Shown one piece after another: positions 1 through 5,468 of a stretch of DNA of 64,000 nt. A model generated the notes under the pieces. It ran no database searches and had not been told where the DNA came from. It saw nothing but the letters and a program-made list of their open reading frames with translations. Origin of the DNA: an uncultured Bacillota bacterium (GTDB lineage: Bacteria > Sysuimicrobiota > Sysuimicrobiia > Sysuimicrobiales > Segetimicrobiaceae); contig CAWDRG010000005.1 in the NCBI GenBank assembly GCA_963804645.1, positions 192,001 to 256,000 on the forward strand. The letters are read 5' to 3'. Every line of letters starts with the position of its first letter. Position 1 is the stretch's first letter. A program made the translations under genes and the position numbers.

Positions 1-540
1 GGCTCGGAGTTCATCAACGAGCATCTCTTCCAATATTGCGCGGCCCGCGATATTCAGTTCACTCGCGGCCGGCCCTACAAGAAAGACGACAACGCCCACA
101 TCGAGCAGAAGAACTGGACCCACGTCCGCAAACTCCTCGGCTGGGACCGCTATGCGTCCCCGACGGCGCTCGCCGCCATCAACGCCCTCTACCGCCAGGA
201 CCTGCGCTTGATGATGAATCTCTTCCAACCCTCCGTGAAACTGCAACGCACCAAACGCACGGGCTCGCGCCGGCGCCGGTTCTATGACGCCCCCCAAACG
301 CCGCTCGACCGGCTGCTGACGTCCCAGGGTGCCACCACCGCACAGCTCAAGACGCTCCGCCGCCTCCGTGCCCGCCTCGACCCGTTCGCCCTCTCGGAAA
401 GTATCGAGCGGCAGCTCCGCCACATCTACACTCTGATCCACCGCGGCCCCATTACTCCCACTCGTCACCCGCTTCCGCATCAGCGGTTCGAGATCCATCG
501 CCGCCCGCCGCTCCCGCGCGTCGCCGCCGGACGCCGGTAA
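1..540 (+). CDS. DDE/integrase-core (rve) transposase, IS481-like/ISNCY type, 5'-partial (runs off window)
   Basis: Frame +1 from base 1 reads GSEFINEHLFQYC...FTRGRPYKKDDNAHIEQKNWTHVRKLLGWDRY...NLFQPSVKL...YDAPQTPLDRLL, stop TAA at 538-540. Confidence 0.9.
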   Translation, partial: GSEFINEHLFQYCAARDIQFTRGRPYKKDDNAHIEQKNWTHVRKLLGWDRYASPTALAAINALYRQDLRLMMNLFQPSVKLQRTKRTGSRRRRFYDAPQTPLDRLLTSQGATTAQLKTLRRLRARLDPFALSESIERQLRHIYTLIHRGPITPTRHPLPHQRFEIHRRPPLPRVAAGRR

Positions 541-596
541 CAGCAATATTGGCGTGACGATACCCCCCTTCGGTAACACTTACTTATGGCTTGACA
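535..596 (+). mobile_element. Right end of the IS: two tandem copies of CGGTAAC-N8/N9-TGGC(G/T)TGAC, ending TTGACA
   Basis: 535-558 CGGTAAC AGCAATAT TGGCGTGAC; C-rich 12-nt linker; 571-595 CGGTAAC ACTTACTTA TGGCTTGAC. Confidence 0.7.
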
Positions 597-606
597 GGGG
601 ATACGT

Positions 607-655
607 GTTGCCTCAGTTGCCTCAACAGTCCTGGTCACCGAACGGGGGGGTGTTG
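607..655 (-). mobile_element. Second, inverted IS-like end (3' exon side); its inner repeat is split by the outer intron and continues at 4672-4691
   Basis: Minus strand: [CGGTGAC ACCCATTT TGAGG | CAAC] ACCCCCCCGTT [CGGTGAC CAGGACTGT TGAGGCAAC] TGAGGCAAC; same N8 / C-rich linker / N9 layout as 535-596. Confidence 0.6.
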
Positions 656-778
656 GGTGGGTCGAGGAGTGGCGCGGTGGCCTTGCGGCTCCGTTTCCAC
701 CCCCCGCCTCATCGAACCGGACATGCAGGTTGCCCGCATCCGGCTCCCCTGTCCACTTCGCACCAAGGGTTATGAGAC

Positions 779-3700
779 CTATCGCGCTGGGAGCGCTTTC
801 GGGAGCCTGTACACATATCGGACGCCATAGTCGTCATACAGTCCGAGCGTGCCATAGATCCACTCCCTACTCCACCTCTTCCAGCCGAAGCCTGGTCGTT
901 TTGCCGCCCTCGCCAAGTGGCGTCGCACTTTCTTCTCGACCCAAAACCGCAGATGTGTAAACTGCCGACTGGTGTTCCCGATGCGAAGTAGAGTAAGGAG
1001 TTGGCGCGCCGCGTAGCTCCGCCGTTAGGGGGTACAGCCTGTCCACCTCCATCGGTGGCTTGCAGCCTCCAGCCCTCGTCCCGGGCGACACACGTTTCCA
1101 ACCCCTCCTCATCGATCCGAGCATGACCTTTCCGGTCACTCGGCTCACCGACGTCCTTCACCGACGGTTTTCGCCCCGCTCGAACCGAACGCTTCCGACC
1201 AAGCGGAGCAACCCGACGCGGTTGCCGGACATGATGATGTACTTCATGCCGCGCCCGCGTCCATTCCGCCCGTGTCGTTTGGAGAGCAGCAACGCCATTC
1301 GTTCGACCGTATACCGGTCCAACTTGGCGAAGCAGCGCGTCGAGTTGCCGTACCGATAGTACTCGCGCCACCCCCCGAGAAAACGATTGAGGTCGCCCAC
1401 AACCGTGTGCGTGGGGACGTGGCGACGATTGCGCCCGGTGAGTTCCCGGATCCGAGAACGGCACCGGAGCACGGCTTTGGCACTCGGCCAGCACGCCGGA
1501 TAGCGAAAGCTCGGTCTACGCCGTGAGGGCACCATCTGATGATGGAAACCCAGAAAGTCATATCCCGCGCTCCCGCTTGCGACTCCAACGATCTGCGTCT
1601 TGGAGCCGGACAATGTCAGCCCCAGCTCTTCCAGGGTTGTTGCCAAAACCGCCTTCGCGGCTTCAGCCTTCTCCCGAGTTGAGCAGCAGATGCAAAGATC
1701 GTCACAGTAGCGAACGAGCACTCCCAACGGCTGGTGCTCCGTCATCCAAGCTCGGTCCAAATGATGTAGGACCACGTTAGCCAGGACTGGCGAGAGCGGC
1801 CCACCTTGTGGAGAGCCCTCCGTCGGGGTCGTCAGCGTACCGCTGTCGAGTATCCCGGCGGACAAGATGCACCGAATGAGCTCCACGACCTTCCGGTCGC
1901 TGATCCGCTCCCGGAGACACTCCAAGATGCGGCCATGCGCGAGTCGATCGAAGCAGCTCTCGATGTCGGCATCCACCACCCATGTCCTTCCTGCCCGAAT
2001 CGCCTCCCGCATTGCTTGCAATGCTTGGTGGGCGTCTCGCCGGGGCCGAAACCCGTACGAGCAGGGCAGAAAGTCCGCCTCGAAGATCGGTTCGATGACG
2101 ATCTTCAGCGCTTGCTGGACCACCCGGTCCCGCACATTCGCGATCCCGAGCGGCCGGAGCTTGTCCGGCTTGCCTGGTTTGGGAATCCAGACGCGCCGCA
2201 GCGGCTGCGGACGGTACGTCCCGTCGCGCAGGCTGGCCTCTAGGTCGTCAAGGAACACCTCTACACCGGCCGCCTCAATATCCGCGATGGTAATGGCATC
2301 GATTCCCGGTGCTCCCTGGTTAGCGCGCACCTCCAACCACGCGCGCCCGAGAACGTCCCTGCGATGGACCCGGTCATACAGCGCGTGGAAACGTCGATTC
2401 GGCGACTGCTTGGCCGCCCGGTACAGTTTGTGTTGAAGGGCTCGAACTTTATCGAGGGTGTTGTTGGGCCTCTCGGCCATGCACCAGTTCCTCCCTCTCC
2501 CACAAACGTGGACGAAGCAGGGGCCCTTCGCTCGGGCGGGTTATGTTGTCCCGCCGGTCGTCGCTAATATGGCCCCATCCGACGCCCTCCCGGCTCAGTG
2601 CGACTTCCCGTTTGGCGGTTATACGCACTGGCTGCTCCCGGATCGCAGACCCGGGGCCGGGGAGGGCCTCTCCAGTTCCCGTCACCACCGTCCGAACGTT
2701 CCGCGCCCCTTACGGCGGGGGGTTCTTCGGCGCTGCATTTCCAGGCTCTCCACGCCTTCCGTGGCCTTCGCCCTGGTATTCCGGGCTCGGCTCCCCCTTG
2801 GTCCCTTTCGGGCTGGTCTAACGCCGCGGCAGACTTCACGTCATGCTGCGGACCGCTCGGTTGCTACCTCCGTGAGGCTTCTGACGCTGGGCTTCGGCGT
2901 CAAGCGTTTCCCCCTGACGCCGCCAGCCTGCTACCAGGCTCCCTGGCGATTACCTGGACGGGACTTTCACCCGCTGGCGGTGACGAGCTTACGGGCTACG
3001 CGCTCAATCCTCCCGACACCACCTCCTTCCATCGCGCGTGCCCTCTGGACACGCAATAATTGAGCCATCCGGCGAGGATTGGATTGACCTCGCTGATGAC
3101 TTGCTGCACCGGCTGGGAGCGGTGTTGCCGAAAGACCTCTCGGAGCCGCTGCCGTACTTCAGTGCATTTGTGGCGCGTTGGTACTTGATGTGGGCGCCAC
3201 GCACCTCGATGACTCCGCACCCGGCGAAAGTCGAACCCGAGAAATGTAAACGCTTCCCTCCGCTCAAGATCCACCACGCGGCTCTTCTGCTCATTGACCT
3301 GGATACCGAGCTTCGCGATTTCCTCCCGAATCCGCCGGTTGATCGCCCGCGGTAGCCAATCGTGCCGTTGGTGCGCATCCACCAGGACCACCAGATCGTC
3401 AGCCCACCGCGCGTACGTCACGTTCGGGACCGTTCCCCGCCGTGTAGTTTGCCGCGCCTTCTCCAACATCTCATCGACTGGAGTCAGATAGATATTGGAG
3501 AGCAAGGGTGAGAGAGGGCCGCCTTGTGGAAGCCCTTGACGGCCCGTGGCCTGAAGAACCAGCTTCAGCAAATGCAGGATCGCGGGATCACTGACCCGCT
3601 TCGCGACCTGTGCCAGCAGTATGTGGTGCTGGACGTGGTCAAAATACGCGTGCAGGTCGAGATCGATCACCCGCGTATGGCGAAGTAGGATAGCCTCTGC

Positions 3701-4147
3701 AACGTGGGCCACGGCTTGATGCGCCGTACGTTTCGGGCGATACCCGTACGAACCGGGCTGAAAATCTGCCTCGAAGATCGGCTCGAGAATAAGTTTCAGC
3801 GCTCCTTGTACGACCCGATCCCGGATCGCGGGAATTTGGAGCACTCGCTCCCCGCCGCCCCGCTTGGGAATCGCGTGTTTGCGTGTTGCCAATGGGCGGT
3901 AGCCTCCGGAGACCAGTTCGTCCTGTAGGCGCGCCAGAAACGTCTCCACGCCGGCGGTCTCGATCGCTTCAAATGTGACGCCGTCGATGCCCGGCGCCCC
4001 ATCATTCGCCTTGGCCGCCATGTACGCTGCCTGGAGTGTCTCCAGTTTGCAGACGTGGACGTAGAGGCCCCAGAAGCGCCAAGCCTTGTCGGACTTCGCC
4101 TTGGCGTACAGCCTTCGTCTCAGGTCCTGCACCGTGATGGACGCCAT
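779..4147 (-). CDS. ltrA: Outer intron RT/maturase, 433 aa after splicing; join(4147..3055, 987..779); no HNH domain
   Basis: WRFWGLYVHVCK, APGIDG, PQGGPLSPLLSNIYL, YARWADD; exons 1093+209 nt = 434 codons, giving ...GWLNYFRIGNTSRQF...GFGWKRWSREWIYGTLGLY...LPAR*. Confidence 0.9.
988..3054 (-). mobile_element. Inner group II intron (2067 nt) nested in the outer RT gene
   Basis: 5' GCGTGTCCAGAGGGCACG at 3054; DV GAGCCGAGTGACCGGAAAGGTCATGCTCGGATC at 1146-1114; 3' end CTCCTTACTCTAC at 988; precise removal restores the outer reading frame. Confidence 0.92.
1158..2480 (-). CDS. ltrA: Inner intron RT/maturase, 440 aa, no HNH domain
   Basis: RFHALYDRV, APGID, RPLGIANVRDRVVQ, SYGFRP, PQGGPLSPVLAN, VRYCDD, GWREYY. 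Confidence 0.95.
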   Translation of the reverse strand: MAERPNNTLDKVRALQHKLYRAAKQSPNRRFHALYDRVHRRDVLGRAWLEVRANQGAPGIDAITIADIEAAGVEVFLDDLEASLRDGTYRPQPLRRVWIPKPGKPDKLRPLGIANVRDRVVQQALKIVIEPIFEADFLPCSYGFRPRRDAHQALQAMREAIRAGRTWVVDADIESCFDRLAHGRILECLRERISDRKVVELIRCILSAGILDSGTLTTPTEGSPQGGPLSPVLANVVLHHLDRAWMTEHQPLGVLVRYCDDLCICCSTREKAEAAKAVLATTLEELGLTLSGSKTQIVGVASGSAGYDFLGFHHQMVPSRRRPSFRYPACWPSAKAVLRCRSRIRELTGRNRRHVPTHTVVGDLNRFLGGWREYYRYGNSTRCFAKLDRYTVERMALLLSKRHGRNGRGRGMKYIIMSGNRVGLLRLVGSVRFERGENRR

Positions 4148-4820
4148 TGTCAGATCGTCCGTGCCTCCCCTCGAACTCGGGCCTGTGGACAGCAGGGCTC
4201 CTTTGCTCTCGCGGCATTACCCGCGTTCATCGCTCGTACGAGCCCCTCCGACTTCCTCTCACCGTCGGCGCGTTTCCCGGGTGTTGCCCGGTTATCGCGC
4301 CTACCCAGCTTCCGATGCTTTCCCATCGAGGTGAGGAGGATCTCTCCAGTTGCTGAACGCGTCCTGGTCACCATGCCGTCGCTAACCACCCCGCCGGACT
4401 GACGACAGCTTCTCTGCCAGATATGCTGTCCTCACATTGCCTTCGCCCTTTGAGGGAAGGCTCGGCGCTCCGGAGTCTTCATTCTCGAGGCCACCTCGCG
4501 TTCGCTTGCGCTACGGCCTGGTGACTCGCTCACCCTTCCACGAAGGGTTTTGTCGGCAGGCTTTAGGTAAGTCGGTCTCTCTCCTTCCCGCTGCCCAAGC
4601 TACGAGGGGTCTGGCTCTTCCCTCGACGGAACTGTCTCCCGCTGAACGCGTCCGCGTTCGTCTGGACGCACCCTCAAAATGGGTGTCACCGAGCGTCGGT
4701 GCGGTGCGCCCTTGCCGCGCGTGCGGCGTGGTCCCGGGAACGCGGGGAAGGGACAGAGGTGTTCGTCACTCCGGTCGCGGAAGTTCGAGGTCACGTCTGA
4801 TCCCTGGCGAGGCCGAGACC

Positions 4821-5468
4821 ATGGACCGACCATCGAGCAGTGTGGAACAGCGGCTGGACGAATTGGAACGCACGATCGCGGTCGCGCACGAACGCATCCG
4901 CGTCCTCGAGGCGCGGCAGCGACGGACCGCCCGCTGGTGGTCGCTCGCCCTCGGCGTGGTAATCACGGTCGCGATCAGTTGGAGTGTGAGCGCGCCGGCG
5001 CGCGGGGCCGGCGCCCCCGGATCAACTTCGGCGACGCTGTATACACCGGTCACCGTCGAGGATCGACAAACGCACCAGGTCATTATGACGATCGATAACT
5101 CCGCCCTCGTCATGCGGGATCACCTCAACAACAAGACGGTGGAAATCGGGACGACCACGGCCGGCGTCGGGGCAGTCGCGGTCTACAACGGAAGCCGTAA
5201 GAATCAATCGTTGCTCGTCGATCTGCTCTCGAGCACTCAGAACGGCGGGATGCTGAGCATCGTCAACGCCGGTGGACGTGAGGTCGCAAATCTGCAGGCC
5301 GGATCGGGCGGAGACGGCAGTTTCGAACTGCGCCGGGGCAACGGCAACCGGCTCGTCACCACGGGCGTGACCGCCACGGGGCAAGGGTACGTCTCCACCT
5401 GGACCCACGGAAACACCACGGGAATCCTCATAGGCGAACCGAGCGTGATCGTCGGACCGAAGCCGTAA
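4821..5468 (+). CDS. Hypothetical membrane-anchored protein: N-terminal coiled coil, TM/signal segment, Gly/Thr-rich beta-strand repeats
   Basis: ATG 4821; VEQRLDELERTIAVAHERIRVLEARQ, WWSLALGVVITVAISW, repeated short G-x-G beta segments. Confidence 0.7.
   Translation: MDRPSSSVEQRLDELERTIAVAHERIRVLEARQRRTARWWSLALGVVITVAISWSVSAPARGAGAPGSTSATLYTPVTVEDRQTHQVIMTIDNSALVMRDHLNNKTVEIGTTTAGVGAVAVYNGSRKNQSLLVDLLSSTQNGGMLSIVNAGGREVANLQAGSGGDGSFELRRGNGNRLVTTGVTATGQGYVSTWTHGNTTGILIGEPSVIVGPKP

Follow-up and report, generated by a model that had tools for sequence, protein, structure and literature searches.

A group II intron inserted in the maturase gene of another at an insertion-sequence end: a bacterial twintron and its probable maturase dependence

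What becomes of a mobile group II intron when the gene for its own maturase is interrupted by a second intron? The question is raised by a stretch of 64,000 nucleotides (contig CAWDRG010000005.1, positions 192,001 to 256,000, of the GenBank assembly GCA_963804645.1 from an uncultured Bacillota bacterium), which we refer to as the window. Its source genome, G000, is a draft assembly of 22 contigs, named C9, C15 and so on below. On the minus strand of the window, an open reading frame (ORF) for a reverse transcriptase (RT) of 383 aa, located at 4147-2996, reads from ...AGWLNY directly into the 5' bases of another intron. We consider that this locus contains three nested elements, namely the end of an rve-type insertion sequence (IS), an outer group II intron without an endonuclease domain residing in it, and a distantly related, complete inner group II intron residing in the RT/maturase gene of the outer one, and that production of the outer maturase would depend on splicing of the inner intron. 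We put the probability of this reading at about 0.8.

Both introns are oriented on the minus strand, and each possesses its own domain I and RT; a domain V and a domain VI with a branch-point A at -7 are present in the outer intron and, with a match just below the gathering score, probable in the inner one. In the original prediction, each intron had been given its own 5' end, domains V and VI, and RT. The Rfam scan which that prediction had proposed (gathering scores, 49 for the 5' model D1D4-4 and 40 for the domain V/VI model RF00029) revealed two sets of group II intron parts on this strand. In the following list, EBS1 and IBS1 stand for exon-binding site 1 and intron-binding site 1, respectively.

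4671..656, minus strand: outer group II intron, 4016 nt with the inner intron and 1949 nt without it (Rfam, EBS1-IBS1 covariation, empty sites).
4672..4693, minus strand: outer 5' exon, corresponding to the inner subterminal repeat of an IS end, with IBS1 UUUGAGG at 4678-4672.
4148..4671, minus strand: outer ribozyme domains I to IVa (Rfam D1D4-4 at 4644-4506, 101.6 bits).
4455-4449, minus strand: outer EBS1 CCUCAAA, located in the loop of a domain I hairpin and forming 7/7 pairs with IBS1 UUUGAGG.
3055..4147, minus strand: outer RT/maturase, first part, with 364 codons plus base 1 of the F codon, covering the RT domain and the beginning of the maturase, or X, domain.
3054..988, minus strand: inner group II intron, 2067 nt, with the same ends as a solo copy.
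2780-2774, minus strand: inner EBS1 loop AAUACCA, located by homology to the EBS1 hairpin of the outer family.
2480-1158, minus strand: inner RT/maturase, intact, 440 aa.
1113..1146, minus strand: inner domain V (Rfam RF00029 alignment).
779..987, minus strand: outer RT/maturase, second part, with bases 2 and 3 of the F codon, 68 codons and the stop codon (rest of the X/thumb domain).
714..746, minus strand: outer domain V (Rfam RF00029).
656..713, minus strand: outer domain VI, with a bulged branch-point A at 662 (-7; paired by hand and by homology with domain VI of the inner intron and of G019).
616..655, minus strand: outer 3' exon, corresponding to the terminal subterminal repeat of the IS end (CAACACCCCCCCGUUCGGUGACC...).

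Removal of the inner intron restores the outer gene. The insertion point lies after the Y codon of GWLNY^F (the caret marks a junction here and below), and joining 4147-3055 to 987-779 gives 1302 nt encoding 433 aa plus a stop, with the sequence ...GWLNYFRIGN... across the joint. When the first 364 outer residues were used as a query, thousands of relatives were found, and most of the 120 listed are ~433 aa long. Compared with ten uninterrupted relatives, the joined protein aligns from 1-433 to 1-433 without gaps in eight cases, another relative has one gap and yet another covers 2-432; the closest one, P0002, is 93.8% identical, and the junction residue is F in all ten (10/10). The in-frame restoration that had been predicted is therefore borne out by end-to-end alignment with uninterrupted proteins of 433 aa. 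In a set of 100 loci of outer relatives, collected from genomes and metagenomes, the RT is unbroken across residues 364/365 in 79 and broken at this position in none, the remaining 21 being cut by contig ends, frameshifts or other insertions; relatives closer than 67% were not found in a search of genome contigs. In addition, an uninterrupted outer-type intron in the genome G019 is colinear across the inner site. None of the statements made here draws on the unpublished genome G047. The inner element lies wholly inside the outer intron and its removal yields a continuous host sequence, which is what defines a twintron.

The first part of the outer RT alone matches Pfam RVT_1 (8.5e-31) and the NCBIfam model TIGR04416 (326.2 bits, above its cut-off of 300 bits), and its GIIM match covers only positions 3-38 of the 80 positions of the profile, stopping exactly at the junction. 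Without removal of the inner intron, the outer maturase is short of its last 69 residues, which belong to the X/thumb domain. The uninterrupted outer copies whose search had been recommended in the original prediction were found in relatives (G019 and the metagenome loci L057 and L058), but none was found in G000, so that in this genome a full-length outer maturase would come only from RNA freed of the inner intron, as that prediction had proposed.

All reading frames concerned are under purifying selection, with ratios of nonsynonymous to synonymous divergence (dN/dS) of 0.07-0.29. Between the two twintrons of G000 (see below), the spliced outer ORF has a dN/dS of 0.15 (dS 0.19), and the values for the inner ORF are 0.07-0.15. 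The 68 codons behind the inner intron are the most informative, since this segment, readable only once the inner intron has been spliced, has been preserved as coding sequence: in the comparison of the window with C15, their dN/dS is 0.29 in the spliced frame versus 0.59 and 4.5 in the other frames, and it is 0.16 in the comparison with G013, a separately assembled second species of the same genus.

The outer boundaries follow from comparison. The outer intron RNA starts with GUGCG, which agrees with the 5' consensus GUGYG, and ends with ...CGACCCACC. Its 5' end at 4671 is set by covariation: among 59 non-redundant outer relatives with differing flanks, the homologous EBS1 loop covaries with the last 7 bases of the exon, with 4-6 pair types per position and 85-98% of the copies paired, the lowest value (85%) being that of exon position -6. 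With regard to the 3' end, two empty IS ends in G000, one on C9 (~324028-324105, TTTTGAGG^CAACACC) and one on C15 (~383300-383375, L048:165-240, TATGAGG^CATCGG), fit the joined flanks only if the cut is placed between 656 and 655. The latter is the left end of the same IS that holds the C15 twintron. According to the hand pairing, this cut also places the branch-point A662 at -7, as is the case in the inner intron (A994) and in G019. The Rfam match of the outer domains V and VI (748-652, 41.6 bits, above the gathering score) would have the intron end at 652, with a conserved flank of 36 nt behind it; this end was dropped after the empty-site comparison favoured 656, the position originally read. 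The length of domain VI varies in the outer family, from ~58 nt in the window to much more in G019 and G013.

The inner boundaries, 3054 and 988, were set in three ways, i.e. by frame restoration, by the ends of the solo copy on C15, and by the colinear uninterrupted intron of G019. The coordinates given originally for the two introns are thus correct according to covariation, empty sites, the solo copy and G019. The inner intron RNA starts with GCGUG and ends with ...CUUACUCUAC, and its branch-point A is at 994 (-7). Although GCGUG departs from the GUGYG consensus, inner relatives at 68-78% RNA identity also have GCGUG at, or within a few bases of, their aligned 5' end; judged by these alignments, it is a lineage variant of GUGYG and appears to give no ground for excluding the inner element from group II. 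The inner intron matches D1D4-4 at 2976-2841 with 106.1 bits, and RF00029 at 1148-988 with 38.6 bits (E 6.1e-05), just below the gathering score, with a long insert in domain VI. This domain is unusually long, with 125 nt from domain V to the 3' end (988-1112). The inner RT matches RVT_1 (1.1e-33), GIIM (1.1e-14) and TIGR04416 (377.7 bits), and is 37% identical to the outer RT. The AAUA part of its EBS1 loop (2780-2777) pairs with UAUU (3058-3055), and the G013 copy has AGUA in the loop opposite UACU in the exon, such that both sides of one pair are changed. For locating EBS, minimum-energy folding of the two 5' intron halves was judged unreliable, and a GGUAAU/CCGUCC pair in a family-conserved loop was rejected as one of many chance hits of an unbiased complementarity scan.

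The flanks of the outer intron place it in the end of an IS. Between the two G000 twintrons, 22 nt of the 5' flank and ~40 nt of the 3' flank are conserved, and the flanks are similar behind L057, a 95% metagenome relative. They correspond to two subterminal repeats (~31-35 nt) of the end of an rve-type IS, and the same two repeats are present, inverted, at the opposite end of the C15 element; the outer 5' exon, which is kept beside the C15 twintron, resembles them. The C15 twintron is located ~100 nt behind the stop codon of the transposase gene, on the same strand, and the transposase matches rve (1.2e-06), IS481 (1.4e-11) and also IS3 models, all below the cut-offs. A scan of G000 with patterns of 19-36 nt, allowing few mismatches, found only the two occupied outer sites; a looser motif scan recovered the empty site on C9 and that at the left end of the C15 element. 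Insertion behind a terminator-like hairpin by means of a short EBS1, as in group IIC introns, is not what we observe: the 5' exon in the window contains only a weak hairpin of 6 bp (-7.8 kcal/mol), separated from the splice site by 15 nt, and the EBS1 of the outer family comprises 7 nt. The nearest solved RTs are the GsI-IIC RT (2.9e-55) and a group II RT/maturase of 427 aa (7uim, 5.1e-50). From their lengths (433 and 440 aa), both RTs are read as proteins lacking an endonuclease domain.

The twintron is not unique to the window. A second one, with identical junctions and both ORFs intact, is present at C15:384636-388650 (94.6% identity over 4079 nt), and a solo copy of the inner intron, 97.8% identical to that of the window, is located at C15:457082-459152 (L002:1501-3571); hence, all three inner ORFs (3/3) and both spliced outer ORFs (2/2) in G000 are intact. 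The solo copy is a block mosaic of the inner introns of both twintrons, with 46 sites like one of them, 43 like the other and 6 private ones, in runs of up to 14 sites from one parent followed by 12 from the other, a pattern that points to recombination among copies. It is surrounded by fragments of other genes. G013 contains the same inner junction inside a 5'-truncated outer intron. The inner copies of G000 and G013 are 92-94% identical (ORF dS 0.20), whereas the outer hosts are 82-83% identical over ~790 nt (dS 0.44-0.56). The inner copies are less diverged than their hosts, indicating that the inner intron arrived after the hosts had diverged; on these distances, it is younger than its hosts. 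In the outer tree, G019 (empty), G013 (occupied), L058 (empty), the window copy (occupied) and the pair formed by the C15 copy (occupied) and L057 (empty) branch off in this order. All three inner forks are strongly supported, and the pairing of the uninterrupted L057 with the C15 twintron, leaving out the window copy, has support 100/99. This alternation of empty and occupied copies implies that the inner intron was gained, or precisely lost, several times. Precise loss would be the outcome expected of retrohoming by outer RNA from which the inner intron has been spliced.

Based on these findings, from which we infer that both introns splice at present and in what order the events take place, we propose the following scheme. 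The inner intron would have arrived by retrohoming into the DNA for the GW-x-x-Y^F motif of the RT genes of other introns, recognizing its target through a short EBS1-IBS1 pairing (AAUA with UAUU) and additional contacts. It would be spliced with the help of its own intact RT, and the RNA freed of it would be translated to give the full-length outer maturase, which could then act on outer RNAs irrespective of whether they contain the inner intron. The outer intron's splicing and mobility would in this way depend, via translation of the maturase, on the activity of the inner one. Inner-free outer RNA would retrohome to generate uninterrupted copies, which could be re-invaded by the inner intron, and we propose that such losses and re-invasions account for the scattered occurrence of the inner intron among the branches of the outer tree. 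Because it is the ORF loop of domain IV, and not the core of the ribozyme, that holds the insertion, the outer intron need not await removal of the inner one in order to fold, and the dependence would act through translation. For this reason, the original statement that the arrangement forces ordered splicing holds in part: dependence of the maturase on removal of the inner intron is well grounded, the forced order is not. Obligatory ordered splicing is a step that we infer, and maturase derived from earlier processed transcripts could act on unprocessed ones.

Several observations weigh against this scheme. Both empty IS ends carry the outer IBS1 and the start of the 3' exon, yet they are unoccupied, and the outer intron may not be homing at present; the strand relative to replication, positions further upstream, or inactivity of the outer intron are possible reasons why these targets are empty. 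The inner EBS1-IBS1 pairing comprises only 4 bp, in a register given by homology and one compensatory change. The site of the solo copy has no detectable RT homology, showing that the site preference of the inner intron is not absolute. The synonymous divergence between the two G000 twintrons is alike for the inner (0.17) and the outer part (0.19), with identities of 95.7% and 93.8%, respectively, which is as compatible with duplication of the composite in one piece as with ordered splicing. Finally, contigs from three RNA-library runs of one study and one DNA run, mapped to 560-4760 at 90% likeness, contain neither of the ligated joints 3055/987 and 4672/655, although contigs cannot show absence. 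The same contigs do contain three other joints and two replaced stretches, which derive from relatives. One RNA-library contig stops exactly at 3054, which may mark the start of excised intron RNA or a break in the assembly at the repeat border. As RNA libraries can contain DNA, we have counted the contig evidence neither for nor against splicing. Separately, one DNA contig and one RNA-library contig link 2531-2535, just upstream of the inner ORF, to 4237-4243, just upstream of the outer ORF, with ~40 other letters in between; they probably stem from a related intron of another organism.

It is possible, though in our view less likely, that the composite moves as a unit, i.e. that the outer lariat keeps the unspliced inner intron, as a passenger and no repeated invader, and retrohomes as a whole, and that the second G000 copy arose in this way. 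Besides the similar divergences of the two parts, the residence of both twintrons in the same kind of IS repeat and the failure to find an uninterrupted outer copy in G000 agree with such movement, and composite retromobility is one of the two routes named in Mohr et al. 2010 (PMC2882425). This route does not readily account for the uninterrupted L057 being nested between the two twintrons on the outer tree, for the mismatch between the inner and outer divergences of G013, or for the presence of the inner intron as a solo element and in unrelated RT hosts. Moreover, the composite would still need maturase from RNA from which the inner intron had been spliced, so that movement as a unit supplements the proposed scheme and does not exclude it. 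The dependence itself would disappear if the inner RT, or the truncated outer protein of 383 aa, served the outer ribozyme in trans. Some intron-encoded proteins serve several related introns, according to the work on Thermosynechococcus elongatus (PMC2882425), and both ribozymes in the window match the same Rfam 5' model, D1D4-4. Yet neither RT is known to serve the ribozyme of the other intron, the two share only 37% identity, the maturase-domain match of the truncated protein ends at position 38 of 80, and purifying selection in the spliced frame behind the insertion would be unexpected if this segment were never translated; we therefore regard service in trans as quite improbable.

The twintron could also be a fossil. 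Both introns would then be relics that survive by chance or were duplicated through recombination of the host, no ordered splicing would take place at present, and the restorable frame would reflect the past only. The empty cognate targets in the same genome, the lack of a spliced junction among the mapped contigs, the 5' truncation of the G013 copy, and neighbourhoods that are heaps of broken mobile elements would all be compatible with this. We nevertheless consider it improbable in view of the intact inner and spliced outer ORFs of G000, the low dN/dS values with constraint behind the insertion in the correct frame only, and an inner intron that is younger than its hosts and present in several RT lineages. 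As for an assembly artefact in which reads of two separate introns were joined, repeats are easily misassembled, the genome is a draft, and none of the contigs listed bridges the junction by at least 31 letters on both sides. However, identical junctions occur in two G000 copies that are 5% apart and in the separately assembled G013, a chimera would hit the exact codon and restore the frame only by an extraordinary coincidence, and two proteins from other sources, P0037 and P0121, have the same read-through tail. An artefact is thus hardly credible.

These two proteins bear on the question of how the inner lineage selects its sites. P0037, which is 73% like the outer RT, terminates in ...AGWLNY followed by CVSRGHAR, and P0121, of another RT lineage and ~40% identical to either RT, terminates in ...RGWTGY followed by 19 residues that are identical to the read-through tail in the window. 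In an RNA-library contig, which was translated in this analysis, the inner 5' end is fused to ...LNPVLRGWAAY. The inner lineage is hence found at the same codon of at least three further RT genes, in addition to the outer introns of the window, C15 and G013. This use of the same site in several different RT genes by one lineage is the behaviour known for introns of Methanosarcina acetivorans, and the number of hosts is a lower bound, since only three candidates were scored in the word-indexed protein search for read-through tails. Five loci of more distant relatives of the inner ribozyme (68-78% identical) are not located in RT genes, indicating that the habit of inserting into RT motifs is confined to the close lineage. 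Around the solo copy, no RT remnant was detected when the joined flanks (400 nt per side) were translated in six frames and compared with a full-length RT profile (best E 0.72). The solo site and the home site have GGATGG...TAT(C)^T in common, and the nucleotide likeness of the solo site to other host sites (GGATGGGCGGCC-GTATC) may reflect target preference only. Tentatively, and at somewhat short of even odds, we suggest that members of the inner lineage are hyper-parasites, i.e. complete, RT-bearing introns that home to the DNA for GW-x-x-Y^F in at least three RT lineages that are ~40% identical, making, through interruption of the maturase, the splicing and spread of their hosts conditional on their own splicing. 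A host would escape when its processed RNA retrohomes, only to be invaded anew, and the resulting cycle of gain and loss would be what is seen on the outer tree.

The immediate surroundings of the twintron contain two other features. The repeat pair in the window resembles a left IS end that has no transposase gene behind it, and it is directly adjoined by the 3' end of another transposase gene:

1..540, plus strand: 3' portion of a gene for an rve-type (IS481/IS3-like) transposase, which belongs to a neighbouring IS and not to the twintron (tblastn with the C15 transposase, 41% identity).

By itself, this fragment (1-540) gave no profile match. On the other side, an ORF of 343 aa at 4437-5468 on the plus strand runs antisense across the outer 5' end; it has no Pfam match, and its first part is probably not a gene.

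Other outer relatives show that nesting is frequent in this family. Relatives among the loci L021-L136 (e.g. L067:2732-2800 and L098:1783-1850) often start 0-2 nt behind a hairpin resembling domain V of another group II intron. A 5' exon of this type (...GCCGGAUGCGGGAAAUCCGCACGUCCGGUU^GUGUG) was recognized by eye in 28 of the 59 non-redundant copies and by a simple hairpin criterion in 33; the 7-nt EBS1 of these relatives pairs with the 3' strand of the hairpin, resulting in tandem-looking RT arrays. A full-text literature search found no paper on insertion at a domain V hairpin. At L136:2119-6007, an outer-type RT is split at residue ~170 (FD motif) by a foreign RT-bearing intron whose 5' part matches Rfam D1D4-6, and the outer-type RTs at L081:132-4336 and L036:1131-4900 are split, again by foreign RT-bearing introns, at residue ~252 (ADD motif), with a D1D4-2 5' part in the case of L036. 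The original remark that bacterial and archaeal twintrons are uncommon therefore needs to be qualified, as it is common for relatives of the outer family to be interrupted by a foreign intron at another RT motif or to reside within another intron themselves. G000 itself contains at least five further families of RT-bearing group II introns, some in two or three identical-scoring copies, and a few matches to the 5' part of the inner ribozyme; a regular-expression scan for further introns by their 5' motif yielded mostly noise.

C10:188676-189938 and C15:191515-192777: further intron-family loci.
C2:214557-215681, C5:310656-311780 and C11:245839-246963: further intron-family loci.
C20:1701-2990: further intron-family locus.
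C5:302939-304141: further intron-family locus.
C9:703446-703843 and C22:4300-4506: matches to the 5' part of the inner ribozyme, with no RT match nearby.

Nesting of this kind is already known, and the twintron in the window is a well-preserved further case that involves no new mechanism and leaves host gene expression untouched. Other group II introns have been reported as targets of repeated, site-specific homing by introns of M. acetivorans (Zimmerly and Semper 2015, PMC4424553). As described there, and as in our case, the introns home to sequences or ORFs of their fellow introns, which offer a lasting site, and no host gene takes part; the archaeal nests reach up to five levels, whereas there are two levels here, in a bacterial host and with both RTs complete and 37% identical. 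In T. elongatus, the ORF-less intron TeI3 is located inside TeI4, in the RT ORF, and insertion at a conserved site of another mobile element has been presented as a proliferation strategy (Mohr, Ghanem and Lambowitz 2010, PMC2882425). There too, the RT ORF of the outer intron is broken by the inner one at a fixed position. According to the same report, however, the inner intron relies on the protein of the outer one and is located between the first two ATGs, such that a protein can be made from the second ATG, and the inner copies are identical while the outer ones have diverged. In contrast, the inner intron of the window has its own RT and cuts the maturase domain with no visible bypass, and both parts of the two G000 copies have diverged to about the same extent. 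The Trichodesmium erythraeum twintron, for which sequential splicing was demonstrated experimentally in a study that terms bacterial twintrons rare (Pfreundt and Hess 2015, PMC4649490), likewise consists of two RT-bearing group II introns in a bacterium; as reported, its inner intron resides in domain I of the host ribozyme and the composite in a conserved protein gene, and not in an ORF and an IS end as is the case here. The twintrons of Euglena chloroplasts are also introns within introns, of which the inner one is often spliced first; the order is described as being imposed by folding of the outer RNA (PMC4424553), whereas in our case it would act through translation of the maturase. A published pipeline is described as unable to detect the outer intron of a twintron (PMC8919778).

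In summary, the locus provides a clean natural case in which the enzyme of one selfish element could be produced only once a second element has removed itself, and it is an additional instance, from a bacterium, of an intron homing to a conserved motif of the maturase. Intact partners, two diverged copies, and both empty and occupied sites make this hierarchy of dependence among retroelements directly testable. Taken together with the relatives described above, the locus suggests that group II introns of environmental bacteria are nested more commonly than the term "rare" in the literature (PMC4649490) implies. If the inner lineage does consist of hyper-parasites, there would be a layered ecology of introns on introns in soil and peat bacteria, overlooked by current surveys.

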